DNA from: a virus
Taxonomy: Duplodnaviria; Heunggongvirae; Uroviricota; Caudoviricetes
Virus record (IMG/VR): IMGVR_UViG_2799112330_000002
Coordinates: 192,001-256,000 of that record
Length of the DNA: 64,000 bases
Reading direction: 5' to 3' (one strand)
This document shows, piece after piece, positions 39,570 to 63,801 of the stretch. A program made the position numbers and the translations under genes. How positions within the stretch are numbered: the first letter of the stretch is position 1; the number at the start of each line of letters is the position of its first letter. Under the pieces are notes generated by a model. The model saw only the letters and a program-made list of their open reading frames with translations, ran no database searches and had not been told where the DNA came from.

Positions 39570-40457
39570 TTATTTATACCATGCTGGTGGATTTCCTTCT
39601 AATGGAGATTCATCAAACATCCATCTCATATCTTGAACATTACTTACATCCCATTTAGATATGTCTCCATTAAATTTTGAACTATAGAACATACAACTCA
39701 TATTTTCAACATTGATAACATTCCATTTCGATATATCTTGATTGAATTTAGAATCATAAAACATATATCCCATATCTTTAACTTTACTTACATTCCATTG
39801 AGATATATCATTATTGAATTCAGATTCTTCAAACATATGACCCATATTTTTAGCATTCCTAATATCCCACTGAGATATATCTATGTTAAATTTATATCCA
39901 TAAAACATGTATTGCATATCTTCAGCTTTGCTTACATCCCAGTTAGATATATTTTGATTAAATTTAGAATATGAAAACATCCATGACATATCTTTAACAC
40001 TACTTACATCCCAATCAGAAATATCTTGATTAAATTTAGATTCAGCAAACATACTAGACATATTATTAACATTACTTACATCCCATTTAGATATGTCTTG
40101 ATTAAATTTAGATTCAGCAAACATATATTGCATATTTTCAACATTATGTATATCCCATAAAGAGATATCTCCATTGAATTTTGATCTACAAAATATATAT
40201 GACATATCCTCAACATTACTTACATCCCATTCAGAAATATCCCCATTAAATTTAGATGAAAAAAATAATTTAGACATATCAGTAATTTTTGATGTATCTA
40301 TATCATTAATATCTGCATCAATACCTCTTTCTTTAATTAATTTTTTTATTAATTTTTGTAGTTCATCTTTTGTTTTTGGATGATAATTATATTGATGGGT
40401 CAAATTGTCTTTTGATAGACGAAATTTCTCTGTTATAAACTGGTTTAGTTTCTTCAT
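39570..40457 (-). CDS. DUF285/BspA-like repeat protein (array 2, 9 repeats)
   Basis: Leader, 24-aa repeats, NPPAWY cap. Confidence 0.9.
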   Translation of the reverse strand: MKKLNQFITEKFRLSKDNLTHQYNYHPKTKDELQKLIKKLIKERGIDADINDIDTSKITDMSKLFFSSKFNGDISEWDVSNVEDMSYIFCRSKFNGDISLWDIHNVENMQYMFAESKFNQDISKWDVSNVNNMSSMFAESKFNQDISDWDVSSVKDMSWMFSYSKFNQNISNWDVSKAEDMQYMFYGYKFNIDISQWDIRNAKNMGHMFEESEFNNDISQWNVSKVKDMGYMFYDSKFNQDISKWNVINVENMSCMFYSSKFNGDISKWDVSNVQDMRWMFDESPLEGNPPAWYK

Positions 40458-40478
40458 ATATATTAGATATTATTTTAT

Positions 40479-41159
40479 TTATTCTTTATACCATGCTGGC
40501 ATATTATATTTTAATGGACATCCAAAAAACATATCATCCATATCTTTAACATTACTTACATTCCATTTTGAAATATCTCCATTAAATTTAGAATAAGCAA
40601 ACATCTGATACATTGTTTTAACATTACTAACGTCCCATTGAGAAATATCTCCATTAAATTTTGATCTTGCAAACATAGCTATCATATTTGTAACATTACT
40701 AACGTCCCATTGAGAAATATCTCCATTAAAAACCGAATCTTTAAACATAATATGCATATTTTTAACACTACTTACATCCCAATTAGATATATCTCCATTA
40801 AATTTAGATTCTCTAAACATACTGTCCATATCTGTAACATTGCTTACATCCCATTTTGATATATCTCCATTAAAATCAGAATTCAAAAACATATTTGTCA
40901 TATCTTTAACATTACTTACATCCCACAAAGATATATCTCCATTGAAATATGAATCATAAAATATAGATGTCATATCAGTGATTTCAGAAGTATCTATATC
41001 ATTTAGATCAGCCTTATTACCTCTTTCTTCAATTAATTTATCTACTAAGTCATTTAGTTCATATAAAGTCTTTGGGTAATAATGATATGTATATACGTTC
41101 TTTAAGTTATCTTTTGATAGTCTAAACTTTTCTGTTATGAACTGATTTAGTTGTTTCAT
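40479..41159 (-). CDS. DUF285/BspA-like repeat protein (array 2, 6 repeats)
   Basis: Same architecture. Confidence 0.9.
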   Translation of the reverse strand: MKQLNQFITEKFRLSKDNLKNVYTYHYYPKTLYELNDLVDKLIEERGNKADLNDIDTSEITDMTSIFYDSYFNGDISLWDVSNVKDMTNMFLNSDFNGDISKWDVSNVTDMDSMFRESKFNGDISNWDVSSVKNMHIMFKDSVFNGDISQWDVSNVTNMIAMFARSKFNGDISQWDVSNVKTMYQMFAYSKFNGDISKWNVSNVKDMDDMFFGCPLKYNMPAWYKE

Positions 41160-41188
41160 ATATAATAATTTATATTATTTAGTTTATG

Positions 41189-41644
41189 TTATTCTTTATA
41201 CCATGCTGGTGGGTTCTGTTCTAATGGGCATCCGTAAAATATATCAAGTTTATTTTCAACATTATGCGTATCCCATTCAGAGATATCTCCAGAAAATTTT
41301 GAACAAGTAAACATATAATCCATATATTTGACTTTACTTACGTCCCATCCAGATATATCACCATTAAATTCTGAATCTGCAAACATATCACTCATATTTA
41401 TTACATTACTTACATCCCATAAAGATATATCTCCATTAAAATTAGAACAATAAAAAGTTGCAGACATATCTTTTATGTTAGATGTATCTATATCATTAAG
41501 ATTTGCGTCATACCCTCTTTCCTCAATTAACTTACTAATAAGAGTATTAAAATTTTTATCATTTGGATGATAGTTATAATGAGGTTCAAGATTGTCTTTT
41601 GATATACGAAATTTCTCCGTTATGAACTGATTTAATTTCTTCAT
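41189..41644 (-). CDS. DUF285/BspA-like repeat protein (array 2, 3 repeats)
   Basis: Same architecture. Confidence 0.9.
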   Translation of the reverse strand: MKKLNQFITEKFRISKDNLEPHYNYHPNDKNFNTLISKLIEERGYDANLNDIDTSNIKDMSATFYCSNFNGDISLWDVSNVINMSDMFADSEFNGDISGWDVSKVKYMDYMFTCSKFSGDISEWDTHNVENKLDIFYGCPLEQNPPAWYKE

Positions 41645-41657
41645 ATATATTATTATT

Positions 41658-42278
41658 TTATTTATAAAATTTATTATACAATTCCGTATACCATGCTGGC
41701 GGATTTTTTTCTAATGGGGAATAATCAACCATCCATGCTATATTTTTGACATTACTTACATCCCATTTAGATATATCTCCATTGAATTTGGACTGTTCAA
41801 ACATATGACACATATCTGCGACATTACTTACATCCCATTTAGATATATCTCCATTAAACTTAGAATTATAAAACATTCCATTCATAGTTGTAACATTACT
41901 TACATTCCAACCAGAGATATCTTCATTAAATTTAGAACGCCAAAACATTCCTGCCATGCTTTTAACATTTGATACATCCCATTTTGATATATCTCCATTA
42001 AAATTTGATTCTTTAAACATCCATGTCATACGTTCAACATTGCTTACATTCCATTCAGAAATATCCCCATTGAATTTAGATTTATAAAATAATTCAGACA
42101 TATCAGTAATTGCACAAACATCTATATCATTAAGATCTGCATCATTCCCTCGTTCTTTAATTAGTTTCTTGACTAATTCTTTTAGTTCATCTTTTGTTTT
42201 TGGATAATAATTATATTGATTAATACTATCTTTTGATAAACGAAATTTCTCTATAATGAACTGGTTTAGTTTCTTCAT
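41658..42278 (-). CDS. DUF285/BspA-like repeat protein (array 2, 5 repeats)
   Basis: Same architecture; tail WYTELYNKFYK. Confidence 0.9.
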   Translation of the reverse strand: MKKLNQFIIEKFRLSKDSINQYNYYPKTKDELKELVKKLIKERGNDADLNDIDVCAITDMSELFYKSKFNGDISEWNVSNVERMTWMFKESNFNGDISKWDVSNVKSMAGMFWRSKFNEDISGWNVSNVTTMNGMFYNSKFNGDISKWDVSNVADMCHMFEQSKFNGDISKWDVSNVKNIAWMVDYSPLEKNPPAWYTELYNKFYK

Positions 42279-42287
42279 ATATTAATT

Positions 42288-42893
42288 TTATCTATTTTTA
42301 TACCATGCTGGTGGATTCTTTTCTAATGGGCAAAAACTAAACATCAATTCCATATTTTTGACATTACTTACATCCCATTGGGATATATCTCCATTAAATT
42401 TCGATTCTTTAAACATCCACGACATATCTTCAACATTACTTACATCCCATTGAGATATATCACCTCTAAATTTAGAATTAGAAAACATTCTATACATAGT
42501 TGTGACATTGCTTACTTCCCAACCAGAGATATCTCCATTAAATTTAGAACCCCAAAACATTCCTGCCATTTTTTCCACATTACTAACATCCCATAAAGAT
42601 ATATCTCCATTAAATTTTGATTCTTTAAACATCCATGTCATTTGTTCAACATTACTTACATCCCATTGAGAAATATCCCCATTAAATTCAGATTTAAAAA
42701 ACATATATGACATATCAGTAATTTCAGATGTGTCAATATCATTGAGATCAGCATCATTACCTCTTTCTTTAATTAATTTATTTACTAATTCTTTTAGTTC
42801 TTTTTGTATTTTAGGATGATAATTATAACGAGGTTCAAGATTGTCTTTTGATAATCTGAATTTCTCTACTATAAACTGATTTAATTTCTTCAT
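42288..42893 (-). CDS. DUF285/BspA-like repeat protein (array 2, 5 repeats)
   Basis: Same architecture. Confidence 0.9.
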   Translation of the reverse strand: MKKLNQFIVEKFRLSKDNLEPRYNYHPKIQKELKELVNKLIKERGNDADLNDIDTSEITDMSYMFFKSEFNGDISQWDVSNVEQMTWMFKESKFNGDISLWDVSNVEKMAGMFWGSKFNGDISGWEVSNVTTMYRMFSNSKFRGDISQWDVSNVEDMSWMFKESKFNGDISQWDVSNVKNMELMFSFCPLEKNPPAWYKNR

Positions 42894-42917
42894 ATACTAT
42901 TTCATTTAAATTTACAA

Positions 42918-43775
42918 TTAAAAATAAATTACCTTTTCTTTCCTAAACCATTTAGGAGGATTGACTTCTAATGGAGTTTTACGAAACATATCTGTTATAA
43001 AACATTTTTTACTTACTTTCCAGTTATTAAGATCCTGATTAAAATTAGAACCATAAAACATTCTATTCATACTTTTTGCTTTTCTTACATCCCATCCAGA
43101 TATGTCTTGATTAAATGCACTTTTTTCAAACATATATCCAAAATCTGTAACCTCTGATACATTCCATTTACTAATATCATAATTAAATGCAGTACCTCTA
43201 AACATGTCTTTCATATCTCTAACATTAGATACATTCCATTTAGATAGATCTTGGTTAAAATTTTTATCATAATTAAACATAGATTCCATTGTTTCAACCT
43301 TACTAACATTCCAATCAGATATATCCTGATTAAAATTAGAACCAGAAAACATCCAACACATATCTTCAACATTTGATACATCCCAATCAGAAATATCTTT
43401 GTTAAATGCGCAATGTTGGAACATTGCTGACATATTTTTGACTTTACTTACGTCCCATCCAGATATATCTCCATTAAAATCTGAATAACTAAACATATTT
43501 GTCATGTCTTCAACATTAGAAACGTCCCATTTAGAAATATCTCCATTAAAATTAAAAGACTGCCCACTATATTGTTCATAACTAAATATACCACACATAT
43601 TTGTAATTTCAGATGTGTCAATATCATTAAGATCAGCATCTTCACCCCTTTCACTAATTAAATCATGAACTAATTGTTGTAGTTCATTTATTGTCTTAGG
43701 GTGATAATTATAAGATCTGAGATTGTCTTTTGATATACGGAATTTTTCATTTACAAATTGTACAAATGATTTCAT
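42918..43775 (-). CDS. DUF285/BspA-like repeat protein (array 2, 8 repeats, divergent)
   Basis: Leader MKSFVQFVNEKFRISKDN. Confidence 0.9.
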   Translation of the reverse strand: MKSFVQFVNEKFRISKDNLRSYNYHPKTINELQQLVHDLISERGEDADLNDIDTSEITNMCGIFSYEQYSGQSFNFNGDISKWDVSNVEDMTNMFSYSDFNGDISGWDVSKVKNMSAMFQHCAFNKDISDWDVSNVEDMCWMFSGSNFNQDISDWNVSKVETMESMFNYDKNFNQDLSKWNVSNVRDMKDMFRGTAFNYDISKWNVSEVTDFGYMFEKSAFNQDISGWDVRKAKSMNRMFYGSNFNQDLNNWKVSKKCFITDMFRKTPLEVNPPKWFRKEKVIYF

Positions 43776-43801
43776 AATTTATATATATTGAGTTTATATA
43801 T

Positions 43802-44356
43802 TTACTTTGTAGATGTATATATATTTTTGTACCATTTTGGCGGATTATCTTCCAATGCTGAACCTTGAAATGCACGAAAGTCAGATATTATACTGGATGT
43901 ATCCCAATGATTAAGATCACATTTGAAATTCTCACAGTTTATAAACATATATGTAATATTTGTTACTTTTGATATGTTCCAGTTTGTTAAATCAGAATCA
44001 AATTTTTCACAATATCCAAATAAGTTTTCCATATTTTCAACATTACTTACATCCCATTCACTTACATCAGAATTAAAGTTCTTACATCCCCAAAATACTC
44101 CAAACATATCTACAACATTTGAAGTATCCCATTCTGATATATCTATATTATGAGGATCTAAGTTAAAAAATGCTCCTGACAAGGTGGTCATTCCAGATAC
44201 ATCAATATCATTAAGATTGGCGTTTTTGTCTTTTGCTAATCTTTTTTTAAGTATATCTTTTAGTTCCTTTATTGTTCGCGGATAATACTTATATTGTGTA
44301 ATATTGTCCTTTGATAGTCTAAATTTCTCTGTTATGAACTGATTTAATTTCTTCAT
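43802..44356 (-). CDS. DUF285/BspA-like repeat protein (array 2, about 4 divergent 25-aa repeats)
   Basis: Standard leader but a divergent body (CKNFNSDVSEW, CEKFDSDLTNW). Confidence 0.88.
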   Translation of the reverse strand: MKKLNQFITEKFRLSKDNITQYKYYPRTIKELKDILKKRLAKDKNANLNDIDVSGMTTLSGAFFNLDPHNIDISEWDTSNVVDMFGVFWGCKNFNSDVSEWDVSNVENMENLFGYCEKFDSDLTNWNISKVTNITYMFINCENFKCDLNHWDTSSIISDFRAFQGSALEDNPPKWYKNIYTSTK

Positions 44357-44385
44357 ATATAATAATTTATATTATTTAGTTTATG

Positions 44386-45132
44386 TTATTTTTTATACCA
44401 TGCTGGAGGGTTCTTTTCTAATGGAGTATTTTCAAACATATCTGTTGTATCACATATTGTATTTATTTTCCATGTAGATATATCTTGATTAAAAGGAGAG
44501 TCTGCAAACATTGCTACCATATTTTTTACAAAGGTAACATTCCACCCAGATATGTCCTGATTAAACTTAGATTTATAAAACATATGATCCATATATATAA
44601 CATTATGTATATTCCATTTAGATATGTCTCCATTAAATTGAGATTTTCTAAACATTCCTCCCATATTTGTTACTTCACTTACATCCCATTGAGAAATATT
44701 TTGATTAAATGATGATTCAGAAAACATCCATGTCATATCACCAACGTTGCTTACATTCCACTTAGAGATATCCCCATTAAATTTTGAACCACAGAACATA
44801 CAACGCATATTTTCAACCTTACTTACATCCCAATTAGATATGTCTCCATTAAACTCTGATTCATAAAACATGTGTTCCATAGTTTTGACATTACTTACAT
44901 CCCATTGAGAAATATCTCCATTAAAAATAATAGGCCAAAACATCTTAGACATATCGGTAATTTCTGATGTATCTATATCATTGAGATCAGCGTCTTTACC
45001 TCTTTCTTCAATGAGTTTCCTTACTAATTCTTTTAATTCATCTCTTGACTTTGGGTGATAGTTATAATGAGATTCAAGATTATCTTTTGATATACGAAAT
45101 TTTTCTGTAATAAACTGTCTTAATTTCTTCAT
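44386..45132 (-). CDS. DUF285/BspA-like repeat protein (array 2, 7 repeats)
   Basis: Same architecture. Confidence 0.9.
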   Translation of the reverse strand: MKKLRQFITEKFRISKDNLESHYNYHPKSRDELKELVRKLIEERGKDADLNDIDTSEITDMSKMFWPIIFNGDISQWDVSNVKTMEHMFYESEFNGDISNWDVSKVENMRCMFCGSKFNGDISKWNVSNVGDMTWMFSESSFNQNISQWDVSEVTNMGGMFRKSQFNGDISKWNIHNVIYMDHMFYKSKFNQDISGWNVTFVKNMVAMFADSPFNQDISTWKINTICDTTDMFENTPLEKNPPAWYKK

Positions 45133-45145
45133 ATATATTATTACT

Positions 45146-45754
45146 TTATTTATTCTTTTTATACCATGCTGGCGGATTCTTGTCTATTGGACATTTATAA
45201 AACATATCATCCATATATTTAACATTATTAACATTCCATACAGATATATCTCCATTAAATTTAGAATTTAGAAACATCCATTCCATATCAACAACATTAC
45301 TTACATCCCATTTAGATATATCACCAGTGAATTTGGAACCAGCAAACATATTTGACATATTTTTAACACTACTTACACCCCATTGAGAAATATCTCCGTT
45401 GAATTTAGAATTATAAAACATACATGTCATATCTTCAACATTACTAACATCCCAATTAGATATATCTCCATTAAATTGAGAATCTCTAAACATAGATCTC
45501 ATGCTTTTAACATTACTAACGTCCCATAAAGAAATGTCTCCATTGAATTCTGATTTATTAAACATAGCTGACATATCAGTAATTGTGGAAGTATCTATAT
45601 CATTGAGATCACCATTATTACCTCTTTCTTTAATTAATTTATCTACTAATTCTTCTAGTTCATCTTTTGTCTTAGGATGATAATTATAATGAGGTTCAAG
45701 ATTGTCTTTTGATAATCTGAATTTCTCTGTTATAAACTGATTTAATTTTTTCAT
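45146..45754 (-). CDS. DUF285/BspA-like repeat protein (array 2, 5 repeats)
   Basis: Start set at MKKLNQF (ATG 45754) by comparison with paralogues. Confidence 0.9.
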   Translation of the reverse strand: MKKLNQFITEKFRLSKDNLEPHYNYHPKTKDELEELVDKLIKERGNNGDLNDIDTSTITDMSAMFNKSEFNGDISLWDVSNVKSMRSMFRDSQFNGDISNWDVSNVEDMTCMFYNSKFNGDISQWGVSSVKNMSNMFAGSKFTGDISKWDVSNVVDMEWMFLNSKFNGDISVWNVNNVKYMDDMFYKCPIDKNPPAWYKKNK

Positions 45755-45770
45755 ATAATTTATATTTTTT

Positions 45771-46190
45771 CTATATTTTAACAATTTCTAATTTATTTTT
45801 ATCCCATTTATAACCCTTTTCATACAGTTTCTCATAAAACATCTCATATTCTTCATCTGTAGCCAATTTATACCATTCTGGATGATTAACATCTCCTACT
45901 CCCATATCTTCAGAAACAACTAATTTATTATATGGAATTACTAATACTGCATGAAATATTATTGTAGTTTCTGAACTATTGGGATAGATTTTGTCTTTTC
46001 CTTTATTCAATGATTTATATATAAAGAACTGTTTGCCTCCTTTATTCCATATTTGAATATCAGGATGAATAAATTCTACTATGTCACCATTTTGTGCATT
46101 TTTAATAGACCAATTTTCCCTATCAAAGAAATCTAAATTTGCTTTAGATAATCTAAATTTTTCAATAATGAATTGAGTTAGTCGTTTCAT
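45771..46190 (-). CDS. Non-repeat protein carrying the array leader
   Basis: MKRLTQFIIEKFRLSKANL followed by an unrelated domain (WSIKNAQNGDIV...LATDEE....L.EKGYKWD). Confidence 0.8.
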   Translation of the reverse strand: MKRLTQFIIEKFRLSKANLDFFDRENWSIKNAQNGDIVEFIHPDIQIWNKGGKQFFIYKSLNKGKDKIYPNSSETTIIFHAVLVIPYNKLVVSEDMGVGDVNHPEWYKLATDEEYEMFYEKLYEKGYKWDKNKLEIVKI

Positions 46191-46246
46191 TATAAACAAA
46201 TAAATATTATTATTAAATAAAAATAAATATATAATATTATATAACG

Positions 46247-47386: not shown

Positions 47387-47406
47387 AATAATATAGAAAG
47401 AATATT

Positions 47407-48078
47407 ATGAAAAAATTTCAAGAATTCAATTCTGAAAACACGTTAAACTGTGATTATAAGACTTGTATTATAGGGAAGTTGAAGAACGCACTTAAAGAAG
47501 AATTCAATGCATGGTATGGTTATATCATTGTTAAAGAATGGTTGACTGGACTAAGCAGAGTTGATATTGAAAAGATGTATGATGAAACCGCTAAGGATGA
47601 ATTAGAAGATCATGCATTTTGGTTGATGAAACGTATCAATGAGCTTGGTGGAACAATTGAAGACATATCTGCTTCTCCAGCTTCTTGGTTGACAGCTAAT
47701 CATACTTATATTTCTCCTGTTTGGTCATGGAAAACAAATAATACATGTTGTCAAACTGGATCATGCTGCGGAGATTGTGAAGATCCATGTGGAGATATTT
47801 GTGATGATCTACCTACAATTACACTTGGTGAACCTTATGAATGTTGTGGAGATGGATGTCAATGTGGATGTCAATGCAAGCCAGATATAATAGAAGTAAA
47901 GCAATCCTTATTAACTAATATAAAAAATGAAGAAGGAGCAATTGAGACTTATAAAGATTTAATTAGAACTGCTCAATCTGATTCTGATTTTGTAACTGAA
48001 CGTAAATGTAAAGAAATTCTTGCCGATGAAGAGGAACATTTACAAATGCTAAAAGATTTTTTAGCCGATATTAGTTAA
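47407..48078 (+). CDS. Ferritin/DPS-like protein with Cys-rich insertion
   Basis: EEFNAWYGY, DELEDHA, RINELGG, EEGAIETY, EEEH ferroxidase-type motifs; insert CCQTGSCCGDC...CCGDGCQCGCQC. Confidence 0.85.
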   Translation: MKKFQEFNSENTLNCDYKTCIIGKLKNALKEEFNAWYGYIIVKEWLTGLSRVDIEKMYDETAKDELEDHAFWLMKRINELGGTIEDISASPASWLTANHTYISPVWSWKTNNTCCQTGSCCGDCEDPCGDICDDLPTITLGEPYECCGDGCQCGCQCKPDIIEVKQSLLTNIKNEEGAIETYKDLIRTAQSDSDFVTERKCKEILADEEEHLQMLKDFLADIS

Positions 48079-54200: not shown

Positions 54201-54414
54201 TATTACCATCATCAAAGTAGATATCAACATTATTGATTTTCTTGTCTGTACTTTCATAGATAGAAGAGACAATACCCTTAATACTGGTTTCTTTGATTTG
54301 ACTTAAGTTTATAGAATAGTTATCTCCATTGACTGCTATAATTAGTTTTGCATCTCTAATGTTATTCGCACTTAGCAACGGAAAATCAGATAGTTTCTTT
54401 ACTTCAGTTATCAT
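51289..54414 (-). CDS. Tail fibre/adhesin-like protein with short collagen repeat and multiple Big_2 Ig-like domains
   Basis: GDAGPQGDKGDKGLEG; IATVDENGLITAIGNGTATITVSATDGSGVT. Confidence 0.8.
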   Translation of the reverse strand: MITEVKKLSDFPLLSANNIRDAKLIIAVNGDNYSINLSQIKETSIKGIVSSIYESTDKKINNVDIYFDDGNKTTLIFSSGSRGDAGPQGDKGDKGLEGASGAKAIERADNTSIKGVFTIVNNNETGTEQGGDVKAWSAYCGKLLRDLIHSINEVFMTDDEYQLLFNEPIFLNLEFNSNKENTQILYQDDHEHVTYVKYWTYEDEDEDEYFIKVGEDEQHNDIFELTTEVKHYWIWVQHEEGDSFEEVDKATYDADENVDHPKYMTTTYKPFDIWDDYYKDPDNNNTYAIRHLVQEFDPITGEIASSHWEYTLMTHPTWLNLQFTTDEDETSIILNEQVVDPDDYKEERNQRSEEEVIVIDIPITHISISPNYVRLPVNKAIKVPVHILPLNYNNDSIFIEYDEDVIKVFEDGRIMAIKENVDDTVVKIYTKGWLENQDNTELYTELHINVITWSSSISFTIDDNDTWISSINSFKDREFTVNPIVYPATSTDKRIEWTIMNENLAEIVAEDTETLPCRYYIWDKDIDEYVETKDVEKYNNDHTRAFNTNVYVYVDEEEEVSKDIEYNVTIDDNVLKLTTLNNSEFYYIQLDAKVGNRYEAFIDKSLTQSANRYVEIVEEKHVKYISHYKVTDNAPIKIRLLNEGETELQATLLGASSDTSFVVNIHIETAISDIEVEDNIDILVGHIKTIEPKIIPENATHKILSWDFGDNNNYGYRQIGNVTGDDINGFVNINRYNEEQNTGTIIVKAMDHENDEDNFRKIIHYNVKVPVSNIQLNSNNVSLDKGDTFQITATVNNDAFNKELIYETDAPAIATVDENGLITAIGNGTATITVSATDGSGVTTTITVRSIILIESISIKNNITYLYSGNEYRIVYSDQLDTADAIVYNINEKSLVENLVWYTSDSNIATVETGTDGSMILKLNENNAGQFKLYAMANDNGGVVSNITINAMMSSEELLLADEQITIDLENDTYTLIASVYPDDTTYQKIKFEVEDPTILSIDSENGIITPLKRGETKIIVSTISKVNNGKLSKECPVIII

Positions 54415-54614: not shown

Positions 54615-55154
54615 TTATTCTTCAAATATGAAATATTTCGTATCATTGTCAATCTTACCGCTATTCAATAGAGCATCATATTCATCTTGTGAACGTAGAT
54701 ATACTTCTTTAAGTTTATTTACCTGAGTATAAAGCTCTTTACCAGCAGCTGCACTTAATATAAGTTCTGTAAGTTCAGCTTCTGAATAGTTATTAAGTTC
54801 TAAGTAATTGACAATCTTTTGTTCAATAAGATCACTTTGCTGATCATATATTGCAATACCTGTCTCACCCGGATCTCCTTGGTCTCCCTTTTCTCCCTTA
54901 GGACCTTGAGAACCCTTTAGACCATTATAGATGTGGAAAGTAGTTGTTGATCCATTGGATGTAGTAATAGTAACAGGATTGTCTGCGCCATCACCTTCAT
55001 TTCTTACCTGATCAATACTTCTTAAGACATTTCCAATCAAAAACTGTGTAGGTATCTTATATGATTTTCCTTTATATGAAACTAACAAATATTCTTCACC
55101 AGTTAGTTCACTTAATGATTTTAACGATGATATCTTTTTACCATTTATTGCCAT
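54615..55154 (-). CDS. Collagen-repeat tail protein
   Basis: GKKISSL N-terminus; GLKGSQGPKGEKGDQGDPGETG; SQDEYDAL...DTKYFI. Confidence 0.75.
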   Translation of the reverse strand: MAINGKKISSLKSLSELTGEEYLLVSYKGKSYKIPTQFLIGNVLRSIDQVRNEGDGADNPVTITTSNGSTTTFHIYNGLKGSQGPKGEKGDQGDPGETGIAIYDQQSDLIEQKIVNYLELNNYSEAELTELILSAAAGKELYTQVNKLKEVYLRSQDEYDALLNSGKIDNDTKYFIFEE

Positions 55155-55201: not shown

Positions 55202-55375
55202 TTAATATTCTGATATTAAATATACAGTTCCTGCCTCATCCATAATTGGTTCTCTCTTTTCTGTCAAAAGTAAGACATAATCACTGAAATTCTCATTGAT
55301 GTATTCTTCAAACTCATTAGTAATTTCACTTGTTTGAGCTTTATTATCATCTATAAAGATGTATAGTTTTTTCAT
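55202..55375 (-). CDS. Small tail-region protein
   Basis: MKKLYIFIDD...LLLTEKREPIMDEAGTVYLISEY (57 aa); late motif upstream. Confidence 0.6.
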   Translation of the reverse strand: MKKLYIFIDDNKAQTSEITNEFEEYINENFSDYVLLLTEKREPIMDEAGTVYLISEY

Positions 55376-55457
55376 TATCAGAAATTATCATATATTTTAA
55401 TTAAAAATAAAACTTAACATGAACTATTTTATATATAAAAATATTATAATTTTTACT

Positions 55458-56337: not shown

Positions 56338-56435
56338 AAAAATATTAAAATTTTTTAAAATTTATTAAAATTTATTTTTTTATTAAACTATATTATATAA
56401 TAGAGCCCCTATAAATATATGAATGAAGGGGAATT

Positions 56436-57674
56436 GTGGCAAGAGTTATTAATAATCTATGTAAGACAAATCAAGCAAAAGTAGACAAATGGCTTCAAAA
56501 ATTCAATAAGCAAAATAATATATCTCAAGATGATTATAATTATTTATCATTATTATTGAATTCTATTATTAAAAAAGATTCTTATTCATTAAAAGAATGT
56601 TCTGAAAAAAATATTGTTGAGTATTATCTATCTCATCTTACAAACAATAATGAGTCAATATTAGACAACTTATATGACAAAGACTATTGGGATAATATAA
56701 AGAAGAAAGTAAGAACAAAACTTGCAATAAAATACACAGGGAACAAAACATTTGATAACAACATTGATATTTATTTCAATGAAGTAAAAGCCGAATATAT
56801 AAAGACACCATTTAATGAATCCGATAATTTAGAGTTTACGGAAGAAAATTATGATGTGTTTATAAAGAACAATCTTAAATTAGTTATTGAATGCGCAAAG
56901 AGATATCAGAATCTTGGATTGTCATTTGAAGATCTTATACAAGCAGGAAATGAAGGCTTATTGAAATGCCTCAAGAAATATAAGAAGAACAAAGCAAATC
57001 TTAGAGTAACAATGCTTGATCTTCTTGAAGAATCTGAATTGAATTCATTTACATATTCACAAGCAATTGATCTAGTAAAGAATGCCTTTTCATATTCTAA
57101 GAATCTAGATTCAACATTAAGTAAGATACCATCAAATGGATTTAAGACAAAAATTGAATTTGAAGAGTGGATAAAGACAAATATCAAACCTGCATCATTT
57201 GCTTCCGTTGCGTTTATGTGGATCAGAGCATATATAATAATTGAACTAAATAGTGTTGGTAATATCATTCATGTTCCTCAATCAGCCCAAAAGAATGGAG
57301 AATCATTAGCAAACATAATTAGATTAGATAGTATAAATCCCCATACGGATGATTGCTATCATGATAACCAGACATCAAAGATAACTGAGGAAGAATTCAT
57401 TACGGATGATGAGAACTTAGAGAACATTGAAAAACAAAACATATTCAAAGATCTTATTGAGAATGTATTATATAAATTGTCTTCTTTAGATAGACGAATA
57501 ATAAAGAAAAAATATGGAATAGGATGTCCTTATGAGTTGTCTATAAATGATATAGCAGAACAGGAAAATCTCTCAGTAAATAAAGTCAAATATATTATCA
57601 ATAATGCTCTCAAACAAATATATGCTAATATTCCTGCAAGAGACAAAGAAACAATCAAAAATTTATTAGGGTAG
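56436..57674 (+). CDS. Sigma-70 family RNA polymerase sigma factor
   Basis: Region 2 NLKLVIECAKRYQNLGLSFEDLIQAGNEGL and FASVAFMWIRAYI; region 4 LSSLDRRIIKKKYGI...SINDIAEQENLSVNKVKYI. Confidence 0.88.
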   Translation: MARVINNLCKTNQAKVDKWLQKFNKQNNISQDDYNYLSLLLNSIIKKDSYSLKECSEKNIVEYYLSHLTNNNESILDNLYDKDYWDNIKKKVRTKLAIKYTGNKTFDNNIDIYFNEVKAEYIKTPFNESDNLEFTEENYDVFIKNNLKLVIECAKRYQNLGLSFEDLIQAGNEGLLKCLKKYKKNKANLRVTMLDLLEESELNSFTYSQAIDLVKNAFSYSKNLDSTLSKIPSNGFKTKIEFEEWIKTNIKPASFASVAFMWIRAYIIIELNSVGNIIHVPQSAQKNGESLANIIRLDSINPHTDDCYHDNQTSKITEEEFITDDENLENIEKQNIFKDLIENVLYKLSSLDRRIIKKKYGIGCPYELSINDIAEQENLSVNKVKYIINNALKQIYANIPARDKETIKNLLG

Positions 57675-57678
57675 AAAC

Positions 57679-58311
57679 ATGACAAAACGAGAATATAGTC
57701 TATTCAAAAATCATCTTAATATAGTAATAGATACAAAACAACATTTCAATTTCAATATAATATCTGATGAAAAAGGAAAATATGCATCACTCATAATAAA
57801 ACTATTCATCATATCATTCTATATTGATCTTCCATTTAACATAAAAGCAACTAACAAATATGGTATTGGCTTTGATTCATATAATACAAGATGGTGGCCA
57901 GATTTCTTCTTCTTTAATTTTGGAAAGAAATCATTCATCTCTCATCTTGTATCTTATCATCGACAATATAATAGATATTATGAGACACGAATGATGAAGG
58001 AAATGCATTTGAAAGATATAAAGAAAAACAATAAGACAAAGAATTCTTTCAAATATAACTCTATAATAAAAGCAAAGAATAATAGAAAGTTCAATGTGTT
58101 ATATTATAGAGAACACCATATCTATAAACATAAACTATTCAAATGGTGGTTAAACTATGACACAATACATAATTTAGTGTTATCTGTAGAATTTGTTGAT
58201 GACCATGGAAATATAAAAAGAACAAAATCTATAATTGTGGATAATCCTGAAGAACCAATTCAAGATTCATTTCAGACATTTTTATCTATAAATAACTATA
58301 CAATTGTATAA
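57679..58311 (+). CDS. Hypothetical protein
   Basis: 210-aa ORF. Confidence 0.6.
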   Translation: MTKREYSLFKNHLNIVIDTKQHFNFNIISDEKGKYASLIIKLFIISFYIDLPFNIKATNKYGIGFDSYNTRWWPDFFFFNFGKKSFISHLVSYHRQYNRYYETRMMKEMHLKDIKKNNKTKNSFKYNSIIKAKNNRKFNVLYYREHHIYKHKLFKWWLNYDTIHNLVLSVEFVDDHGNIKRTKSIIVDNPEEPIQDSFQTFLSINNYTIV

Positions 58312-58338
58312 TATTTGTTCCTTTTCTATTATAATAAC

Positions 58339-58941
58339 TTATTCTTTATACCATGCTGGTGGATTTTTTTCTAATGGAGATCTATAAAACATTTCTCGCA
58401 TATTATCAACATTACTTACATCCCAATGAGATAAATCATAATTAAAATTTTCACATATATAAAACATACATTCCATATTTTTAACCTTACTCACATCCCA
58501 TTTAGATATATCTCTATTAAATTTAGATTGACAAAACATATAATCCATACCTCTAACATGACTTACATTCCATTGAGATATATCTCCATTGAATTGAGAA
58601 TCCATAAACATAGCTCTCATATTTGTAACATTACTAACATCCCATTCTGATATGTCTCCATTAAATTTAGAATATTCAAACATAGCAAACATAGTTTCAA
58701 CATTACTTACATCCCATCCAGATATGTCTCCATTAAATTTAGAAAAATAAAATACTTCTGACATATCAGTAATTTCAGATGTATCTATATCATTTAGATT
58801 AGCCTTATTACCTCTTTCTTTAATTAATTCCTTTACTAATTTTATTAGTTCATCTTTTGTCTTAGGATAATAATGATATGACTTAAGATTGTCTTTTGAT
58901 ATTCTGAATTTCTCTGTTATAAACTGGTTTAATTTTTTCAT
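58339..58941 (-). CDS. DUF285/BspA-like repeat protein (array 3, 5 repeats)
   Basis: Leader, repeats, cap. Confidence 0.9.
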   Translation of the reverse strand: MKKLNQFITEKFRISKDNLKSYHYYPKTKDELIKLVKELIKERGNKANLNDIDTSEITDMSEVFYFSKFNGDISGWDVSNVETMFAMFEYSKFNGDISEWDVSNVTNMRAMFMDSQFNGDISQWNVSHVRGMDYMFCQSKFNRDISKWDVSKVKNMECMFYICENFNYDLSHWDVSNVDNMREMFYRSPLEKNPPAWYKE

Positions 58942-58946
58942 ATATA

Positions 58947-59741
58947 TTAGATTAACTTATTTTTATACCATGCTGGTGGATTATTTTCTAATGGTGAATA
59001 GTCAAACATATATGTCACATCTCCAACATTTGAAATATTCCATTTAGAAATATCTTGGTCAAATTTTGCTCCCCAAAACATCCTATTCATATTTAAAACT
59101 TTACTTACATCCCATAAAGATATGTCTCCATTGAAATCTGAATCATAAAACATATGACTCATATTTTTTACTTTACTTACGTCCCATCCAGATATATCAC
59201 CATCAAATACCGATTCATAAAACATACCAAACATATCTTCAACATTACTTACATCCCATTGAGAAATATCTTGGTTAAATTTTGTTCCCCAAAACATCCT
59301 ATTCATATATTTAACATTACTAACATCCCATTTAGATATATCTCCATTAAATTTAGATTGCCTAAACATTTCTGCTGTATTTACAACTTTACTTACATCC
59401 CATTCAGATATATCTCCGTTGAATTTTGACTCTTGAAACATTCCTTCCATATTCTTAACATTACTAACGTCCCATTCTGATATATCCACATTGAATTCAG
59501 AATAAGCAAACATATATGACATATCCGTAACATTAGTAGTATCTATATCATTAAGATCAGCATCATTACCTCTTTCTATAATTAGTTTCCTTACTATTTG
59601 GTGTAGTTCTTTATTTGTTTTTGGATGATAATTGTAATGAGGCTCAAGATTGTCTTTTGATAGACGAAATTTTTCTGTTATATATTTGGTTATACCAAAG
59701 GCTCTTTCAGCTTCTGAAATATATTGATTTAATTTCTTCAT
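58947..59741 (-). CDS. DUF285/BspA-like repeat protein (array 3, 7 repeats, double leader)
   Basis: MKKLNQYISEAERAFGITKYITEKFRLSKDN. Confidence 0.9.
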   Translation of the reverse strand: MKKLNQYISEAERAFGITKYITEKFRLSKDNLEPHYNYHPKTNKELHQIVRKLIIERGNDADLNDIDTTNVTDMSYMFAYSEFNVDISEWDVSNVKNMEGMFQESKFNGDISEWDVSKVVNTAEMFRQSKFNGDISKWDVSNVKYMNRMFWGTKFNQDISQWDVSNVEDMFGMFYESVFDGDISGWDVSKVKNMSHMFYDSDFNGDISLWDVSKVLNMNRMFWGAKFDQDISKWNISNVGDVTYMFDYSPLENNPPAWYKNKLI

Positions 59742-59762
59742 ATATATTAGATATTATTTCAT

Positions 59763-60434
59763 TTAACTTTTATACCAAGCTGGTGGATTCTTTTTTAATG
59801 GGCAAGCCCCAAACATTCCTGTCATGCTTCTAACATTTGATACATCCCATTTTGATATATCTCCATTAAATTTAGATTGACAAAACATATAATCCATATC
59901 TCTAACATGACTTACATTCCATTGAGATATATCACCATTGAATTTTGATCTGGCAAACATATCAGACATATTCGTAACACTACTGACATCCCATTTAGAA
60001 ATATCTCCATTAAATTCAGAATTCAAAAACATACTATCCATTAATTTTACTTTGCTTACATTCCATTTAGAAATGTCATTATTGAATTTAGAATTCAAAA
60101 ACATACATTCCATATCTTTAACCTTACTTACATCCCACAAAGATATATCACCATTGAATGTAGATTCATAAAACATATAATCCATTTTTTCAACATTACT
60201 TACATCCCATAAAGATATATCTCCATTGAATGTAAAACTTCTAAATAGCATGCTCATATCAGTAATCTCAGAAACATCTATATCATTTAGGTTTGCTTCA
60301 TTGCCTCTTTCTTCAATTAATTTGATTATTAATTTTTTTAATTCAATTTTTGTTTGAGGCTGATACTGAAACTGATTAAGATTGTCTTTTGATAGTCTGA
60401 ATTTCTCTGTTATGAATTGATTTAGTTTTTTCAT
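59763..60434 (-). CDS. DUF285/BspA-like repeat protein (array 3, 6 repeats)
   Basis: Same architecture. Confidence 0.9.
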   Translation of the reverse strand: MKKLNQFITEKFRLSKDNLNQFQYQPQTKIELKKLIIKLIEERGNEANLNDIDVSEITDMSMLFRSFTFNGDISLWDVSNVEKMDYMFYESTFNGDISLWDVSKVKDMECMFLNSKFNNDISKWNVSKVKLMDSMFLNSEFNGDISKWDVSSVTNMSDMFARSKFNGDISQWNVSHVRDMDYMFCQSKFNGDISKWDVSNVRSMTGMFGACPLKKNPPAWYKS

Positions 60435-60447
60435 ATATATTATTACT

Positions 60448-60975
60448 TTATTTATACCATGCCGGTGGATTGTTTTCTAATGGGCAATCCTGAAACATAT
60501 CTATCCCACACTTAACTTTACTTACATCCCATTTAGAGATATCTCCATTAAATTTAGACTTTTGAAACATCCATCCCATATTTTCAACATTACTTACATC
60601 CCATTTAGAAATATCTTGGTTAAATTTTGTTCCCCAAAACATATATTTCATATTTTTAACATTATGTACATCCCATAAAGAGATATCTCCATTAAATTTG
60701 GATTTACAAAATATATATTGCATATCTTCAACCTTGCTTACATCCCATGTCGAAATATCCCCATTAAAATTAGAAGTAAAAAATATTGAAGACATATCGG
60801 TAATTTCAGATGTATCTATATCATTGAGATCAGCATCATTACCTCGTTCTTTAATTAGTTCCTTTACTAATTTCCTTAGTTCATCTCTTGTCTTTGGATG
60901 ATAGTTATAGTGAGGCTCAAGATTATCATTGGATAGTCTGAATTTCTCTGTTATGAATTGATTTAATTTCTTCAT
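60448..60975 (-). CDS. DUF285/BspA-like repeat protein (array 3, 4 repeats)
   Basis: Same architecture. Confidence 0.9.
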   Translation of the reverse strand: MKKLNQFITEKFRLSNDNLEPHYNYHPKTRDELRKLVKELIKERGNDADLNDIDTSEITDMSSIFFTSNFNGDISTWDVSKVEDMQYIFCKSKFNGDISLWDVHNVKNMKYMFWGTKFNQDISKWDVSNVENMGWMFQKSKFNGDISKWDVSKVKCGIDMFQDCPLENNPPAWYK

Positions 60976-60985
60976 GTATAAGGTT

Positions 60986-61447
60986 TTATTTATTTTTATA
61001 CCATGCCGGAGGATTATCTTCTAATGGGCAATGTTTAAATATATCGCGCATATCTATACCATTACTTACATCCCATTGAGTTATATCTTCATTGAATTCA
61101 GACCAGCTAAACATATCTCTCATAGTTTTAACTTTACTTACATCCCATGTGGATATATCTCCATTAAATTTAGAATGTTTAAACATTTCTTGCATATTAT
61201 CAACATTACTTACATTCCATTCAGAGATATCTCCATTAAAATTAGACGCCCAAAATAAACCACTCATATCAGTAATTTCAGAAGTATCTATATCGTTGAG
61301 ATTAGCCTTATTCCCGCGTTCTTTAATTAACTTATTAATCAATCTATATAATTCATAAACGTTTTTAGGATGATAGTTATAATGAGGCTCAATATTGTCT
61401 TTTGATAACCTAAACTTTTCTGTTATAAACTGATTTAGTTGTTTCAT
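60986..61447 (-). CDS. DUF285/BspA-like repeat protein (array 3, 3 repeats)
   Basis: Same architecture. Confidence 0.9.
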   Translation of the reverse strand: MKQLNQFITEKFRLSKDNIEPHYNYHPKNVYELYRLINKLIKERGNKANLNDIDTSEITDMSGLFWASNFNGDISEWNVSNVDNMQEMFKHSKFNGDISTWDVSKVKTMRDMFSWSEFNEDITQWDVSNGIDMRDIFKHCPLEDNPPAWYKNK

Positions 61448-61473
61448 ATATATTAGATATTAACTTATTTTAT

Positions 61474-61935
61474 TTATTCTTTATACCATGCTGGAGGATT
61501 TTTTAACAATGGAGAATTATCAAATATCCATGACATATTTTTGACATTACTTACATTCCATTGAGATATGTCTCTGTTGAATTCAGATTCATCAAACATA
61601 CATTGCATAATTTTAACATTACTAACATCCCATTTAGAAATATCTCCATTGAACTCTGATTTATTAAACATAGCTTCCATAGTTGTAACATTACTTACAT
61701 CCCATTGAGATATATCCCCATTAAATTTAGATTCAGCAAACATAGCTCTCATATTTGTAACCTTACTTACGTTCCAATTAGATATATCTCCATTAAATTT
61801 AGAACCACAAAATATGAGTGACATATCAGTAATTTCCGATGTGTCTATATCATTAAGATCAGCATCATCTCCTCTTTCTTTAATGTCTTTTGATAGACGG
61901 AATTTCTCTGCGATGAATTGGTTTAATTTCTTCAT
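61474..61935 (-). CDS. DUF285/BspA-like repeat protein (array 3, 4 repeats, N-cap deleted)
   Basis: MKKLNQFIAEKFRLSKD joined directly to IKERG. Confidence 0.88.
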   Translation of the reverse strand: MKKLNQFIAEKFRLSKDIKERGDDADLNDIDTSEITDMSLIFCGSKFNGDISNWNVSKVTNMRAMFAESKFNGDISQWDVSNVTTMEAMFNKSEFNGDISKWDVSNVKIMQCMFDESEFNRDISQWNVSNVKNMSWIFDNSPLLKNPPAWYKE

Positions 61936-61948
61936 ATATTAGATTAAC

Positions 61949-62476
61949 TTATTTTTTATACCATTTAGGAGTGTTATTTGTTAATGGGCGGGCATGAAAC
62001 ATATATCTCATATCTTTAACATTAGATACATTCCAATTAGATATATCTTTATTGAATTCTGATCCTCTAAACATCCACGACATATCTTCAACATTAGATA
62101 CATCCCATTTAGATATATCACCATTAAATTGAGAATCTCTAAACATTGAATACATAGTTTTAACTTTACTTACATCCCATTCAGATATGTCTTGATTAAA
62201 TGATGAATTAGCAAACATATATTTCATGTCTTCAACATTACTTGTATTCCAATCAGATATATCTCCATTGAAATCAGAATCCATAAATAATTCTGACATA
62301 TTAGTAATTTCTAAAGTATCTATATCATTGAGATCGGCATCATTCCCACGTTCTTCAATAAGTTCATTTACTAATTCCCTTAGTTCATCTCTTGTCTTAG
62401 GATGATAATTGTATTGATTAAAATTGTCTTTTGATAGACGGAATTTCTCCGCAATGAACTGGTTTAACTGTTTCAT
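61949..62476 (-). CDS. DUF285/BspA-like repeat protein (array 3, 4 repeats)
   Basis: Leader MKQLNQFIAE. Confidence 0.9.
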   Translation of the reverse strand: MKQLNQFIAEKFRLSKDNFNQYNYHPKTRDELRELVNELIEERGNDADLNDIDTLEITNMSELFMDSDFNGDISDWNTSNVEDMKYMFANSSFNQDISEWDVSKVKTMYSMFRDSQFNGDISKWDVSNVEDMSWMFRGSEFNKDISNWNVSNVKDMRYMFHARPLTNNTPKWYKK

Positions 62477-62489
62477 TTATTATTACTAT

Positions 62490-63185
62490 TTATTTATAAA
62501 ATTTATTATACCATTCTGTATACCATTTGGGAGGATTATTTTCCAATGGTGAGGCGGTAAATATATTTCTCATATTTTTAACATTAGATACATTCCAACT
62601 AGATATGTCTTTATTGAAATCTGATCCTCTAAACATATGACACATATCAGCGACTTTACTTACATCCCATTTAGATATGTCTTGATTAAATTTAGAATAT
62701 GAAAACATCCAAGCCATATCCTTAACATTACTTACATCCCAATCAGAAATATCTTGATTAAATTTAGATTCAGCAAACATAGTATACATGCTCCAAACAT
62801 TACCTATATTCCATTTAGATATGTCTTGATTAAATACTGATTCAGCAAACATATATTGCATATCTTCGACATTATGTACATCCCATAAAGAGATATCTCC
62901 GTTAAATTTTGATCTTGCAAACATATTACTCATATTTTTAACATTACTAACATCCCATTCAGATATATCACCAGTGAAATTAGTATTTGCAAATAATGCT
63001 GACATATCTATAATTTCAGATGTATCTATATCATTAAGATTAGCATCCATACCTCTTTCGCTAATTAACTTTCGCATTGTTTCTCTTAATTCTTTATTTG
63101 ACTTAGGATGATAATTATAATGATGTTCAAGATTGTCTTTTGATAAACGGAATTTCTCGGTTATGAACTGGTTTAGTTTCTTCAT
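62490..63185 (-). CDS. DUF285/BspA-like repeat protein (array 3, 6 repeats)
   Basis: Tail WYTEWYNKFYK. Confidence 0.9.
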   Translation of the reverse strand: MKKLNQFITEKFRLSKDNLEHHYNYHPKSNKELRETMRKLISERGMDANLNDIDTSEIIDMSALFANTNFTGDISEWDVSNVKNMSNMFARSKFNGDISLWDVHNVEDMQYMFAESVFNQDISKWNIGNVWSMYTMFAESKFNQDISDWDVSNVKDMAWMFSYSKFNQDISKWDVSKVADMCHMFRGSDFNKDISSWNVSNVKNMRNIFTASPLENNPPKWYTEWYNKFYK

Positions 63186-63198
63186 ATATTACTTTAAC

Positions 63199-63801
63199 TT
63201 ATTTTTTATACCATTTAGGAGGATTATCTTCTAATGGACATTTATAAAACATTTCTTGCATATATTCAATATTACTTACATCCCATTTAGATATATCTTG
63301 GTTAAATTTTGATCCATAAAACATTCTATCTATATATTTAACATTACTTACATTCCAATTAGATATATCTCTATTAAATTTAGACTTAACAAACATATTA
63401 GACATATTTTCAACATTACTTACATTCCAATTAGAGATATCTTTATTAAATTTAGAATTAGTAAACATATATTGCATATCTTCAACTTTATGTACATTCC
63501 AATTAGAGATATCTTTATTAAATGCAGAATAACCAAACATCCATGACATATATTTAACATTACTTACATCCCATTCAGATATATCTCCATTGAATTTAGA
63601 GTTATAAAATATATTTGTCATATCAGTAATTGCAGAAGTATCTATATCATTTAGATCTGCATCATTGCCTCTTTCTTTAATTAGTTTCTTTACTAATTCT
63701 TTTAACTCATCTTGTGTCTTTGGATGATAATTATATTGATGGGTTAGATTGTCTTTTGATAATCTGAATTTTTCTATAATGAATTGATTTAGTTTCTTCA
63801 T
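63199..63801 (-). CDS. DUF285/BspA-like repeat protein (array 3, 5 repeats)
   Basis: Same architecture. Confidence 0.9.
   Translation of the reverse strand: MKKLNQFIIEKFRLSKDNLTHQYNYHPKTQDELKELVKKLIKERGNDADLNDIDTSAITDMTNIFYNSKFNGDISEWDVSNVKYMSWMFGYSAFNKDISNWNVHKVEDMQYMFTNSKFNKDISNWNVSNVENMSNMFVKSKFNRDISNWNVSNVKYIDRMFYGSKFNQDISKWDVSNIEYMQEMFYKCPLEDNPPKWYKK

Follow-up and report, generated by a model that had tools for sequence, protein, structure and literature searches.

The question raised by the locus described here is why a phage genome should hold dozens of versions of one repeat-protein gene, each starting with nearly the same short leader. The 64,000-nucleotide stretch of DNA that was analyzed (the window) is C82:192001-256000, part of the 410,106-bp contig C82 (IMG/VR record IMGVR_UViG_2799112330_000002), and three tandem arrays within it encode 21 proteins of the DUF285 family. 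Feature coordinates count from the start of the window unless C82 is given. By analogy with the internal proteins of phage T4, these leader-tagged proteins may be leucine-rich repeat (LRR)-type binders that are made late in infection, loaded into the head, cleaved, and injected to target host proteins, a reading to which we assign a probability of roughly 0.48.

Twenty-one intact DUF285 genes were found on the minus strand where a preliminary description of the sequence had placed them, 3 at 8358-10155, 9 at 39570-45754, and 9 at 58339-63801, with intergenic gaps of 5 to 32 bp inside the arrays. The library of 21 proposed in that description holds for the window and falls short as a total, the whole of C82 carrying 44 such genes in 8 arrays. 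As an example of family assignment, the product of 39570-40457 matched Pfam DUF285 (PF03382) with an E value of 1.3e-86 and a score of 286.7 bits against a cut-off of 25. C82 (GC content, 29%) is by far the largest contig of a 1.9-Mb bin of 103 contigs (median GC content, 26%), and it contains 89 stretches above the DUF285 cut-off, versus 2 weak ones in the remaining 1.5 Mb of the bin, which puts the family on C82 far beyond chance.

The proposed build of these proteins proved accurate in each of its parts. All 21 window paralogues start with MK(K/Q/S)(L/F)xQ(F/Y)(I/V)xE, the typical leader being MK(K/Q)LNQFI(T/I/A/V)E-KFR(L/I)SKDN(L/I), and exactly two leaders (61474-61935 and 61949-62476) end in FIAE. 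The segment KFR(L/I)SKD directly follows the tag in 20 of 21, the exception being 58947-59741, where the tag is duplicated (MKKLNQYISE...KYITE-KFRLSKDNL). Behind the leader come an N-cap (YNYHPKT..EL..L...LI.ERG..A.LNDIDTS), 3 to 9 repeats per gene of a 24-amino-acid module (a period of 24 residues in 181 of 197 spacings across all 44 paralogues), and a PLExNPPxWY-type C-cap, which is missing only from 8358-8978. A signal peptide, lipobox, or transmembrane anchor was looked for on the window paralogues and rejected, none having been found; among the 21, the highest Kyte-Doolittle mean over 15 residues was 0.85.

Leaderless homologues begin exactly at the YxYxPKT N-cap, which marks residues 1 to approximately 21 as an add-on. 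This add-on turned out to be portable. The preliminary description had confined the system to DUF285, a restriction that did not survive a survey of the whole contig: 84 of the 516 open reading frames (ORFs) on C82 are tagged, comprising the 44 DUF285 genes and 40 others that include NUDIX, HAD/polynucleotide kinase-like, and P-loop proteins, versus 0 of 1,500 ORFs on the other contigs of the bin, which have similar GC content. The full 19-residue leader is found on unrelated bodies at 45771-46190, the first gene of array 2, which was absent from the earlier account, and at C82:53741, 54197, 256194, and 27106; the bodies of these non-DUF285 long-leader proteins have no PHROG or Pfam annotation. 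A short 10-residue form, MK(S/T/D)(L/I)xx(Y/F)(I/L)xE, starts about 35 more unrelated C82 proteins, such as a Nudt16-like NUDIX hydrolase (C82:34174-34623, minus strand), a HAD/polynucleotide kinase-like phosphatase (C82:70778-71422, plus strand), and a P-loop protein (C82:8397-9320, plus strand). About 20 tagged genes of unrelated sequence lie together at C82:68-82 kb, in a block that ends at the prohead protease gene, directly upstream of it.

Codons within the leader vary synonymously. For example, Arg13 is encoded by AGA, AGG, CGT, or CGC, and the codons for Leu, Ser, Phe, Glu, and Lys are also variable. This free variation implies selection on the peptide, and gene conversion, an RNA element, and a translation signal were therefore rejected as nucleotide-level causes. 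They are also contradicted by the bacterial contigs of the bin, which have equal GC content and no such N termini. The expectation that bacterial-type DUF285 proteins would lack the leader was borne out: the sole bacterial protein in the bin to match DUF285, and that weakly (C53:6574-8298), has a classical Sec signal peptide at its N terminus, and the tag is absent from a DUF285 homologue on a 2.2-Mb contig.

Among the best 120 of more than 7,900 homologues, 24 carry an analogous leader, MKxIxxYIxE(K/R)LxIxK, and the duplicated tag (YISE...YITE-KFRLS) is present in 3 paralogues and in 2 metagenomic homologues (P0021 and P0045). One further locus (L072; IMG/VR 3300031760_004430: 7180-12762) contains 8 tandem DUF285 genes, overlapping one another by about 17 nt, with the leader MK(R/Q)(I/L)(N/T)NYI(I/L)EKLQIGS(N/T)TKLG, showing that comparable arrays exist in further uncultured phages whose leader has diverged. 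A related 283-kb phage (L039/L038; IMG/VR 3300045988_170375, 12321-17843) has 4 or 5 tandem DUF285 genes in which the repeats come after another conserved N-terminal domain, M(A/P/S)K(I/L)FRNY(D/N)TL..., and no capsid-type tag is present.

The capsid-targeting sequence (CTS) of T4 is MKTYQEFIAE (PMC8442874), as the preliminary description had it. Within the CTS, residues 4 and 7 serve targeting and residues 8 and 10 serve processing, and the T4 protease gp21 cuts after L/I-X-E, with Asp at position 10 preventing cleavage (PMC9026906). The consensus of the 84 tagged C82 ORFs, M-K-x-(L/I)-x-x-(F/Y)-I-x-E, agrees with T4 at residues 4, 7, 8, and 10. In the non-DUF285 tagged proteins, an aromatic residue (Tyr or Phe) occupies position 7 in 37 of 45, and Ile or Leu is found at position 8 in 42 of 45. 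Among 53 non-DUF285 proteins selected on positions 1 to 9, 40 have Glu at position 10, one has Asp, and 4 others carry Glu one residue further on; of 9 ORFs elsewhere in the bin selected in the same way, none has Glu10. Of the window DUF285 genes, 20 of 21 encode an I-x-E site, and 42918-43775 encodes V-N-E instead.

The same genome supplies the machinery that such a tag would use. Judged by its genes, C82 represents an uncultured, T4-related jumbo myovirus. Its products include a portal (phrog_213, E=2.8e-75), a tail sheath, a baseplate wedge subunit, and, at C82:82910-84607, a gp21-type prohead protease (Peptidase_S77; PF03420, E=1.6e-11 to 2.3e-12; phrog_207, E=1.5e-41) fused to a long scaffold-like C-terminal part. 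The homologue of this protease in phage PTm1 is annotated as "prohead core scaffolding protein and protease," and a gp23-type major capsid protein (PF07068, E=8.9e-28) adjoins the protease on C82. By capsid protein, the nearest database phage is LR756500.1, an uncultured 462-kb phage with 36% identity, followed by Sphingomonas phage PAU, the Lak megaphages, Tenacibaculum phages pT24 and PTm1, and Chryseobacterium phages MA9V-1 and MA9V-2; closer relatives, with 57 to 81% capsid-protein identity, are present in IMG/VR. When 12 kb of the window was compared by megablast with 50,697 phage records, no match was returned. The bin (G000) combines the 410-kb phage contig with a 1.5-Mb low-GC bacterial genome and is estimated to be 99.7% complete and 7% contaminated. 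One Pfam pass over a candidate DNA-modification block on the phage contig found only a GT2 glycosyltransferase and a C5-methylase-like protein.

The tag was also followed across genomes with a back-translated DNA pattern, ATGAAR(N12)TWYATHNNNGAR, using the reversed pattern as a control. In the 169-kb T4 genome, which served as the positive control, the pattern matched 3 sites, ipII, ipIII, and the small ORF 61.1, and the reversed pattern matched 0. T4 gp61.1 (NC_000866: 18966-19130, minus strand; 54 amino acids, uncharacterised) starts with MKTFKEFIKE, a near-perfect capsid-targeting-type N terminus. A stricter pattern, with Leu, Ile, Phe, Val, or Met at position 4, gave 5 to 20 matches in each of 5 relatives at 57 to 59% capsid-protein identity and 0 matches with the control. 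Essentially no tag was seen at gene starts in PAU, PTm1, and LR756500.1, each examined both around the head genes and across the entire record, or in Lak-A1, examined across the entire record. The capsid proteins of the C82 phage and its relatives share a conserved (L/M)LTE-(Q/N)F near the N terminus (LLTE-QF in C82), which resembles both the leader FITE-KF and the known gp23 site FLTE-AE, a likeness suggestive only of a possible shared site. At the level of sequence, then, the capsid-targeting role proposed in the preliminary description is favored by the T4-like residues, the presence of a gp21-type protease, the portability of the tag, and selection at the peptide level.

The bodies behind the tag have the properties of a variable binding surface. 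An AlphaFold2 model of the 42288-42893 protein (68 sequences) had a mean predicted local distance difference test score of 93.9, with residues 22 to 201 forming a solenoid and residues 1 to 20 lying apart from it as a helix modeled with low confidence (block means, 69 and 56). Searches with VIA-align returned LRR proteins at Z scores of 9 to 11, each match starting at residue 20 to 30 and the aligned region spanning residues 20/22 to 201, and these included Leptospira and Treponema LRR proteins, internalins, and FNIP proteins of Cafeteria roenbergensis virus; Z scores were 9.4 for a hagfish variable lymphocyte receptor (VLR), 9.0 for YopM, and 8.6 for the SspH1 LRR domain. Foldseek alone gave weak LRR matches only, the best at E=0.06. 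The DUF285 bodies are predicted on this basis to adopt an LRR-like solenoid fold.

Variation among the paralogues is concentrated at a few positions of the repeat. Across 241 repeats numbered from the invariant Trp, positions +9, +10, +13, and +14 had entropies of 3.5 to 3.9 bits, with Tyr, Trp, Ser, Gly, Arg, and acidic residues common there, while four intermediate positions had 2.5 to 3.0 bits and the remaining 16 scaffold positions had at most 1.7 bits. With an i, i+1, i+4, i+5 spacing and repeats stacked in register, the four hypervariable positions would fall along a single uninterrupted exposed stripe. The ratio of nonsynonymous to synonymous substitution rates (dN/dS) was 1.71 at hypervariable, 1.25 at intermediate, and 0.12 at scaffold positions in 1,204 repeat pairs with at least 80% nucleotide identity, although defining the classes by amino acid variability exaggerates the contrast, and the repeat pairs lack independence. 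This pattern points to diversifying change without proving it. The preliminary description spoke of an antibody- or VLR-like repertoire, and the LRR fold and hypervariable positions fit that picture, but its somatic side finds no counterpart: the diversity lies in germline paralogues only, and 44 of 44 DUF285 genes are complete with their own starts and stops and show no sign of cassette assembly. Both gene copy number and repeat number vary freely among relatives. The mature proteins of the 44 paralogues are acidic, with a median isoelectric point of 5.0 (range, 4.3 to 7.0) and a net charge of 0 to -16.

The timing of expression was approached through a promoter-like motif, TTATTTTTA(A/T)(T)ATA with the core TATTTTTA(A/T), found 30 to 100 nt upstream of structural genes on C82. 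It precedes the genes for the portal, protease-scaffold protein, capsid protein, tail sheath, and a tail fibre, as well as an adaptor-like gene and several very large virion-like genes, and it was not found upstream of the DNA polymerase, helicase, single-stranded DNA-binding protein, topoisomerase II, or RecJ-like genes. We infer that it is a late-type promoter. The motif heads or lies inside 7 of the 8 same-strand runs that contain DUF285 arrays and also precedes the head gene of array 2 (Table 1); the array 3 run extends upstream past the window to C82:257404, where the motif occurs. Within the first 12 genes downstream of a motif fall 37 of the 44 DUF285 genes and 35 of the 40 other tagged genes, compared with 208 of the remaining 432. 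Placement of DUF285 genes behind a structural-gene motif argues against early-only expression. Copies in the window include those on the minus strand at 11105-11114, 42918-42927, and 46217-46226. The motif often stands right after a hairpin and a T-run, so that such sites look like terminator-promoter junctions. The window also encodes, at 56436-57674 on the plus strand, a 412-amino-acid protein with a Sigma-70 region 2 match (E=5.7e-7), which may be the phage's own sigma factor for TTATTTTTAATTATATA-type promoters.

Taken as a mechanism, these features would work as follows. The DUF285 genes would yield small LRR-type solenoid binders made late in infection by a T4-related jumbo phage, and the first 10 residues would dock each protein on the prohead scaffolding core in the manner of the T4 CTS. 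The gp21-type S77 prohead protease would then cut after Glu10 at the I-x-E site, and the mature protein, now starting with KFRLSKDNL, would be retained once the head is filled and would pass into the cell along with the DNA. Differing mainly at 4 exposed positions per 24-residue repeat, the 44 paralogues could there bind different host proteins, with defence proteins the most plausible targets. T4 Ip1, Ip2, and Ip3 have only the leader in common, and each blocks a different GmrSD type IV restriction enzyme (PMC12373910); more than 10 internal-protein types are known from T-even phages (PMC12373910, PMC3012670). Against this precedent, 44 LRR binders with changing surfaces would extend the logic of one protein per enzyme. 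Neutralisation of host defence and an antibody- or VLR-like role are offered here as analogies. The more ambitious version, in which the capsid is preloaded with about 44 hypervariable LRR binders and about 40 other tagged proteins, enzymes included, as an injected counter-defence repertoire, is rather doubtful.

Several findings weigh against packaging and injection, beyond the limits on the dN/dS contrast given above. If all tagged proteins were loaded, each head would hold at least 80 protein species, including HAD-, NUDIX-, and P-loop-type enzymes. The mature DUF285 proteins are acidic, whereas a highly basic character is described for the internal proteins of T4 (PMC8442874). Beyond the predicted cleavage point, KFRLSKDNL forms a second strongly conserved, portable segment, which a pure propeptide model fails to explain, and relatives carry EKLxIxK as an equivalent of this region. 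In the related phage G004, DUF285 repeats stand behind a different N-terminal domain with no tag, and a search of the phage collection yielded no cultured tag-bearing relative. UvsX and a homing endonuclease likewise have the promoter-like motif upstream, and TerL lacks it, leaving the "late" label unclean.

The strongest competitor, itself unlikely, keeps the proteins out of the virion: they would act in the infected cytoplasm, and the leader would be a chaperone handle, a stability or translation determinant, or an oligomerisation helix. A DnaJ homologue (38466-39548) adjoining array 2, the many enzymes among the tagged proteins, and the acidity of the proteins suit such a role. It fits poorly with peptide-level selection on a motif in which Glu10 is near-obligatory, with the clustering of tagged genes beside the prohead protease gene, with the occurrence of the same motif in T4 ipII and ipIII, and with the position of the genes in runs headed by the structural-gene motif.

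Packaging through the tag followed by a structural role inside the head, in DNA organisation or an inner body as for the paralogous processed head proteins of phiKZ-like phages, is improbable. Giant phages do pack large masses of processed internal proteins (PMC9026906), tagged genes are many, and the arrays are associated with the structural-gene promoter motif, array 1 even sharing its run with a virion gene; yet the proteins are acidic LRR solenoids whose copy and repeat numbers are free to vary among relatives, and their variation at 4 exposed positions per repeat, with dN/dS above 1, suits changing binding partners better than it suits packing. Least probable is a place on the virion exterior, as a capsid or tail decoration or an adhesin with the leader helix as an uncleaved assembly docking peptide. 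In its favor, bacterial DUF285/BspA-like members are surface proteins (the C53 protein has a signal peptide), the repeats of G004 are fused to a different N-terminal domain, array 1 has virion genes for neighbors, and conservation of KFRLSKDNL would make sense in a docking element. Against it, the functional residues of the T4 internal-protein signal are matched by the tag, whose last three residues form an I-x-E protease site; the tag is shared by NUDIX, HAD-type, and P-loop proteins that are unlikely decorations, and no anchoring domain is present.

Table 1. DUF285 paralogues, other tagged genes, and promoter-like motifs in the window
Position	Strand	Feature	Length (aa)	Repeats	Remarks
8358..8978	-	DUF285 paralogue, array 1	206	4	Atypical C terminus without PLExNPPxWY cap
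8996..9598	-	DUF285 paralogue, array 1	200	5	
9631..10155	-	DUF285 paralogue, array 1	174	4	9 bp downstream of adaptor-like gene
10165..11079	-	Virion gene, phrog_211 head-tail adaptor-like			Heads run containing array 1
11105..11114	-	Promoter-like motif TTATTTTTAA			Upstream of adaptor-like gene and array 1
26237..26662	-	Tagged non-DUF285 gene			Short tag MKSLDTFITE; among baseplate genes
39570..40457	-	DUF285 paralogue, array 2	295	9	
40479..41159	-	DUF285 paralogue, array 2	226	6	
41189..41644	-	DUF285 paralogue, array 2	151	3	
41658..42278	-	DUF285 paralogue, array 2	206	5	
42288..42893	-	DUF285 paralogue, array 2	201	5	Protein used for structure prediction
42918..42927	-	Promoter-like motif TTATTTTTAA			Internal to array 2
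42918..43775	-	DUF285 paralogue, array 2	285	8	Divergent leader MKSFVQFVNE
43802..44356	-	DUF285 paralogue, array 2	184	4	Repeats of 25 aa
44386..45132	-	DUF285 paralogue, array 2	248	7	
45146..45754	-	DUF285 paralogue, array 2	202	5	
45771..46190	-	Head gene of array 2	139		19-aa leader MKRLTQFIIEKFRLSKANL on unrelated body; no Pfam/PHROG match
46217..46226	-	Promoter-like motif TTATTTTTAT			27 nt upstream of array 2 head
58339..58941	-	DUF285 paralogue, array 3	200	5	
58947..59741	-	DUF285 paralogue, array 3	264	7	Duplicated tag YISE, then YITE-KFRLSKDNL
59763..60434	-	DUF285 paralogue, array 3	223	6	
60448..60975	-	DUF285 paralogue, array 3	175	4	
60986..61447	-	DUF285 paralogue, array 3	153	3	
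61474..61935	-	DUF285 paralogue, array 3	153	4	Leader ending FIAE; N-cap mostly lost in frame
61949..62476	-	DUF285 paralogue, array 3	175	4	Leader ending FIAE
62490..63185	-	DUF285 paralogue, array 3	231	6	
63199..63801	-	DUF285 paralogue, array 3	200	5	

Other genes surround the arrays. The DnaJ/Hsp40 homologue next to array 2 is full length, with a J domain, a CXXCXGXG zinc finger, and a C-terminal domain, and lies on the plus strand, as does a ferritin/rubrerythrin-like protein gene at 47407-48078, between arrays 2 and 3. On the minus strand, 48854-51253 encodes a 799-amino-acid protein with a weakly cyclophilin-like C terminus, 51289-54414 a 1,041-amino-acid protein with a Big_2 Ig-like domain and a hyaluronate-lyase N-terminal beta domain, and 54615-55154 a short protein with collagen repeats; these three products are probably fibre or decoration proteins.

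The closest parallel among known systems is T4 itself. Like the C82 proteins, Ip1, Ip2, Ip3, and Alt of T4 carry a 10-residue tag with a hydrophobic residue at position 4, Phe or Tyr at 7, Ile at 8, and Glu at 10; a gp21-type S77 protease and a gp23-type capsid protein are encoded in the same genome, and the tag is common to otherwise unrelated, fast-evolving accessory proteins. The scale differs, with 84 tagged genes in C82 versus 3 in T4 and some 10 or more described for T-even phages as a group, and so does the composition, since over half of the C82 set (44 genes) is one LRR/DUF285 family in tandem arrays. Unlike the T4 proteins, those of C82 have the extra KFRLSKDNL segment, are acidic, and share no body homology with Ip1 to Ip3. 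Phages of the phiKZ type (phiKZ, 201phi2-1, and SPN3US) resemble the proposed C82 system in having many head-loaded proteins, some in paralogous families, and a gp21-related protease that cuts after Glu at a short motif. Their motif is S/A-X-E, their long propeptides have no shared 10-residue tag, their packaged proteins are not LRR proteins, and they belong to another lineage.

DUF285 proteins have their own known relatives. The DUF285/PARCEL/BspA-like proteins of Mollicutes, Firmicutes, and others (Roske et al. 2010, PMC2996958) belong to the same Pfam family as the C82 copies and share with them a repeat of about 24 to 26 residues, an invariant scaffold with variable hydrophilic positions, and multigene expansions tied to mobile DNA. 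The bacterial members usually have a signal peptide or lipobox and a surface location, whereas the C82 copies, at 151 to 295 amino acids, have no export signal and a capsid-tag-like leader. Aureococcus anophagefferens virus (Kratosvirus quantuckense) encodes 38 DUF285 proteins (PMC10720644) and, like C82, has dozens of paralogues in repetitive regions; it is a eukaryotic virus without a gp21-type head protease system, unlike C82, and the tag was not seen on the single locus of that virus examined (L020). The VLRs of jawless vertebrates and the LRR domains of YopM and SspH1/IpaH share with C82 an LRR solenoid (predicted in C82), a fixed scaffold, and an in-register variable surface, and the injected bacterial LRR effectors also share with the C82 proposal the notion of entering a foreign cell. 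The likeness is one of fold and logic only, with no relationship in sequence to these proteins, and C82 shows no somatic diversification.

The T4 CTS, its protease, and its diverse injected internal proteins are thus already established, as are DUF285 expansions in bacteria and in a giant algal virus (PMC2996958, PMC10720644). A literature search found no paper linking a T4-type capsid tag with DUF285. The combination for which no description was found is a T4-type tag on a tandem hypervariable LRR family in a 410-kb phage, together with the same tag on dozens of other proteins and a further conserved stretch beyond the predicted cleavage point.

If the tag has the same function as its T4 counterpart, the injected cargo of uncultured giant phages could be listed from sequence, and here it would amount to about 16% of genes. 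Should packaging be true, the phage would inject enzymes besides binders, and for a whole clade of phages from gut, rumen, and mouth the set of delivered proteins would become readable in the same way. The binders would then provide broad-spectrum counter-defence in the first minute of infection, turning the T4 logic of one protein per restriction enzyme into a combinatorial binder family. An LRR family that expands in tandem and is under positive selection at surface positions would constitute a new class of phage effector or anti-defence scaffold and also a natural binder library, with T4 CTS packaging as a ready test bed. For DUF285, a widespread family to which no function has been assigned, the arrays provide a testable viral role.

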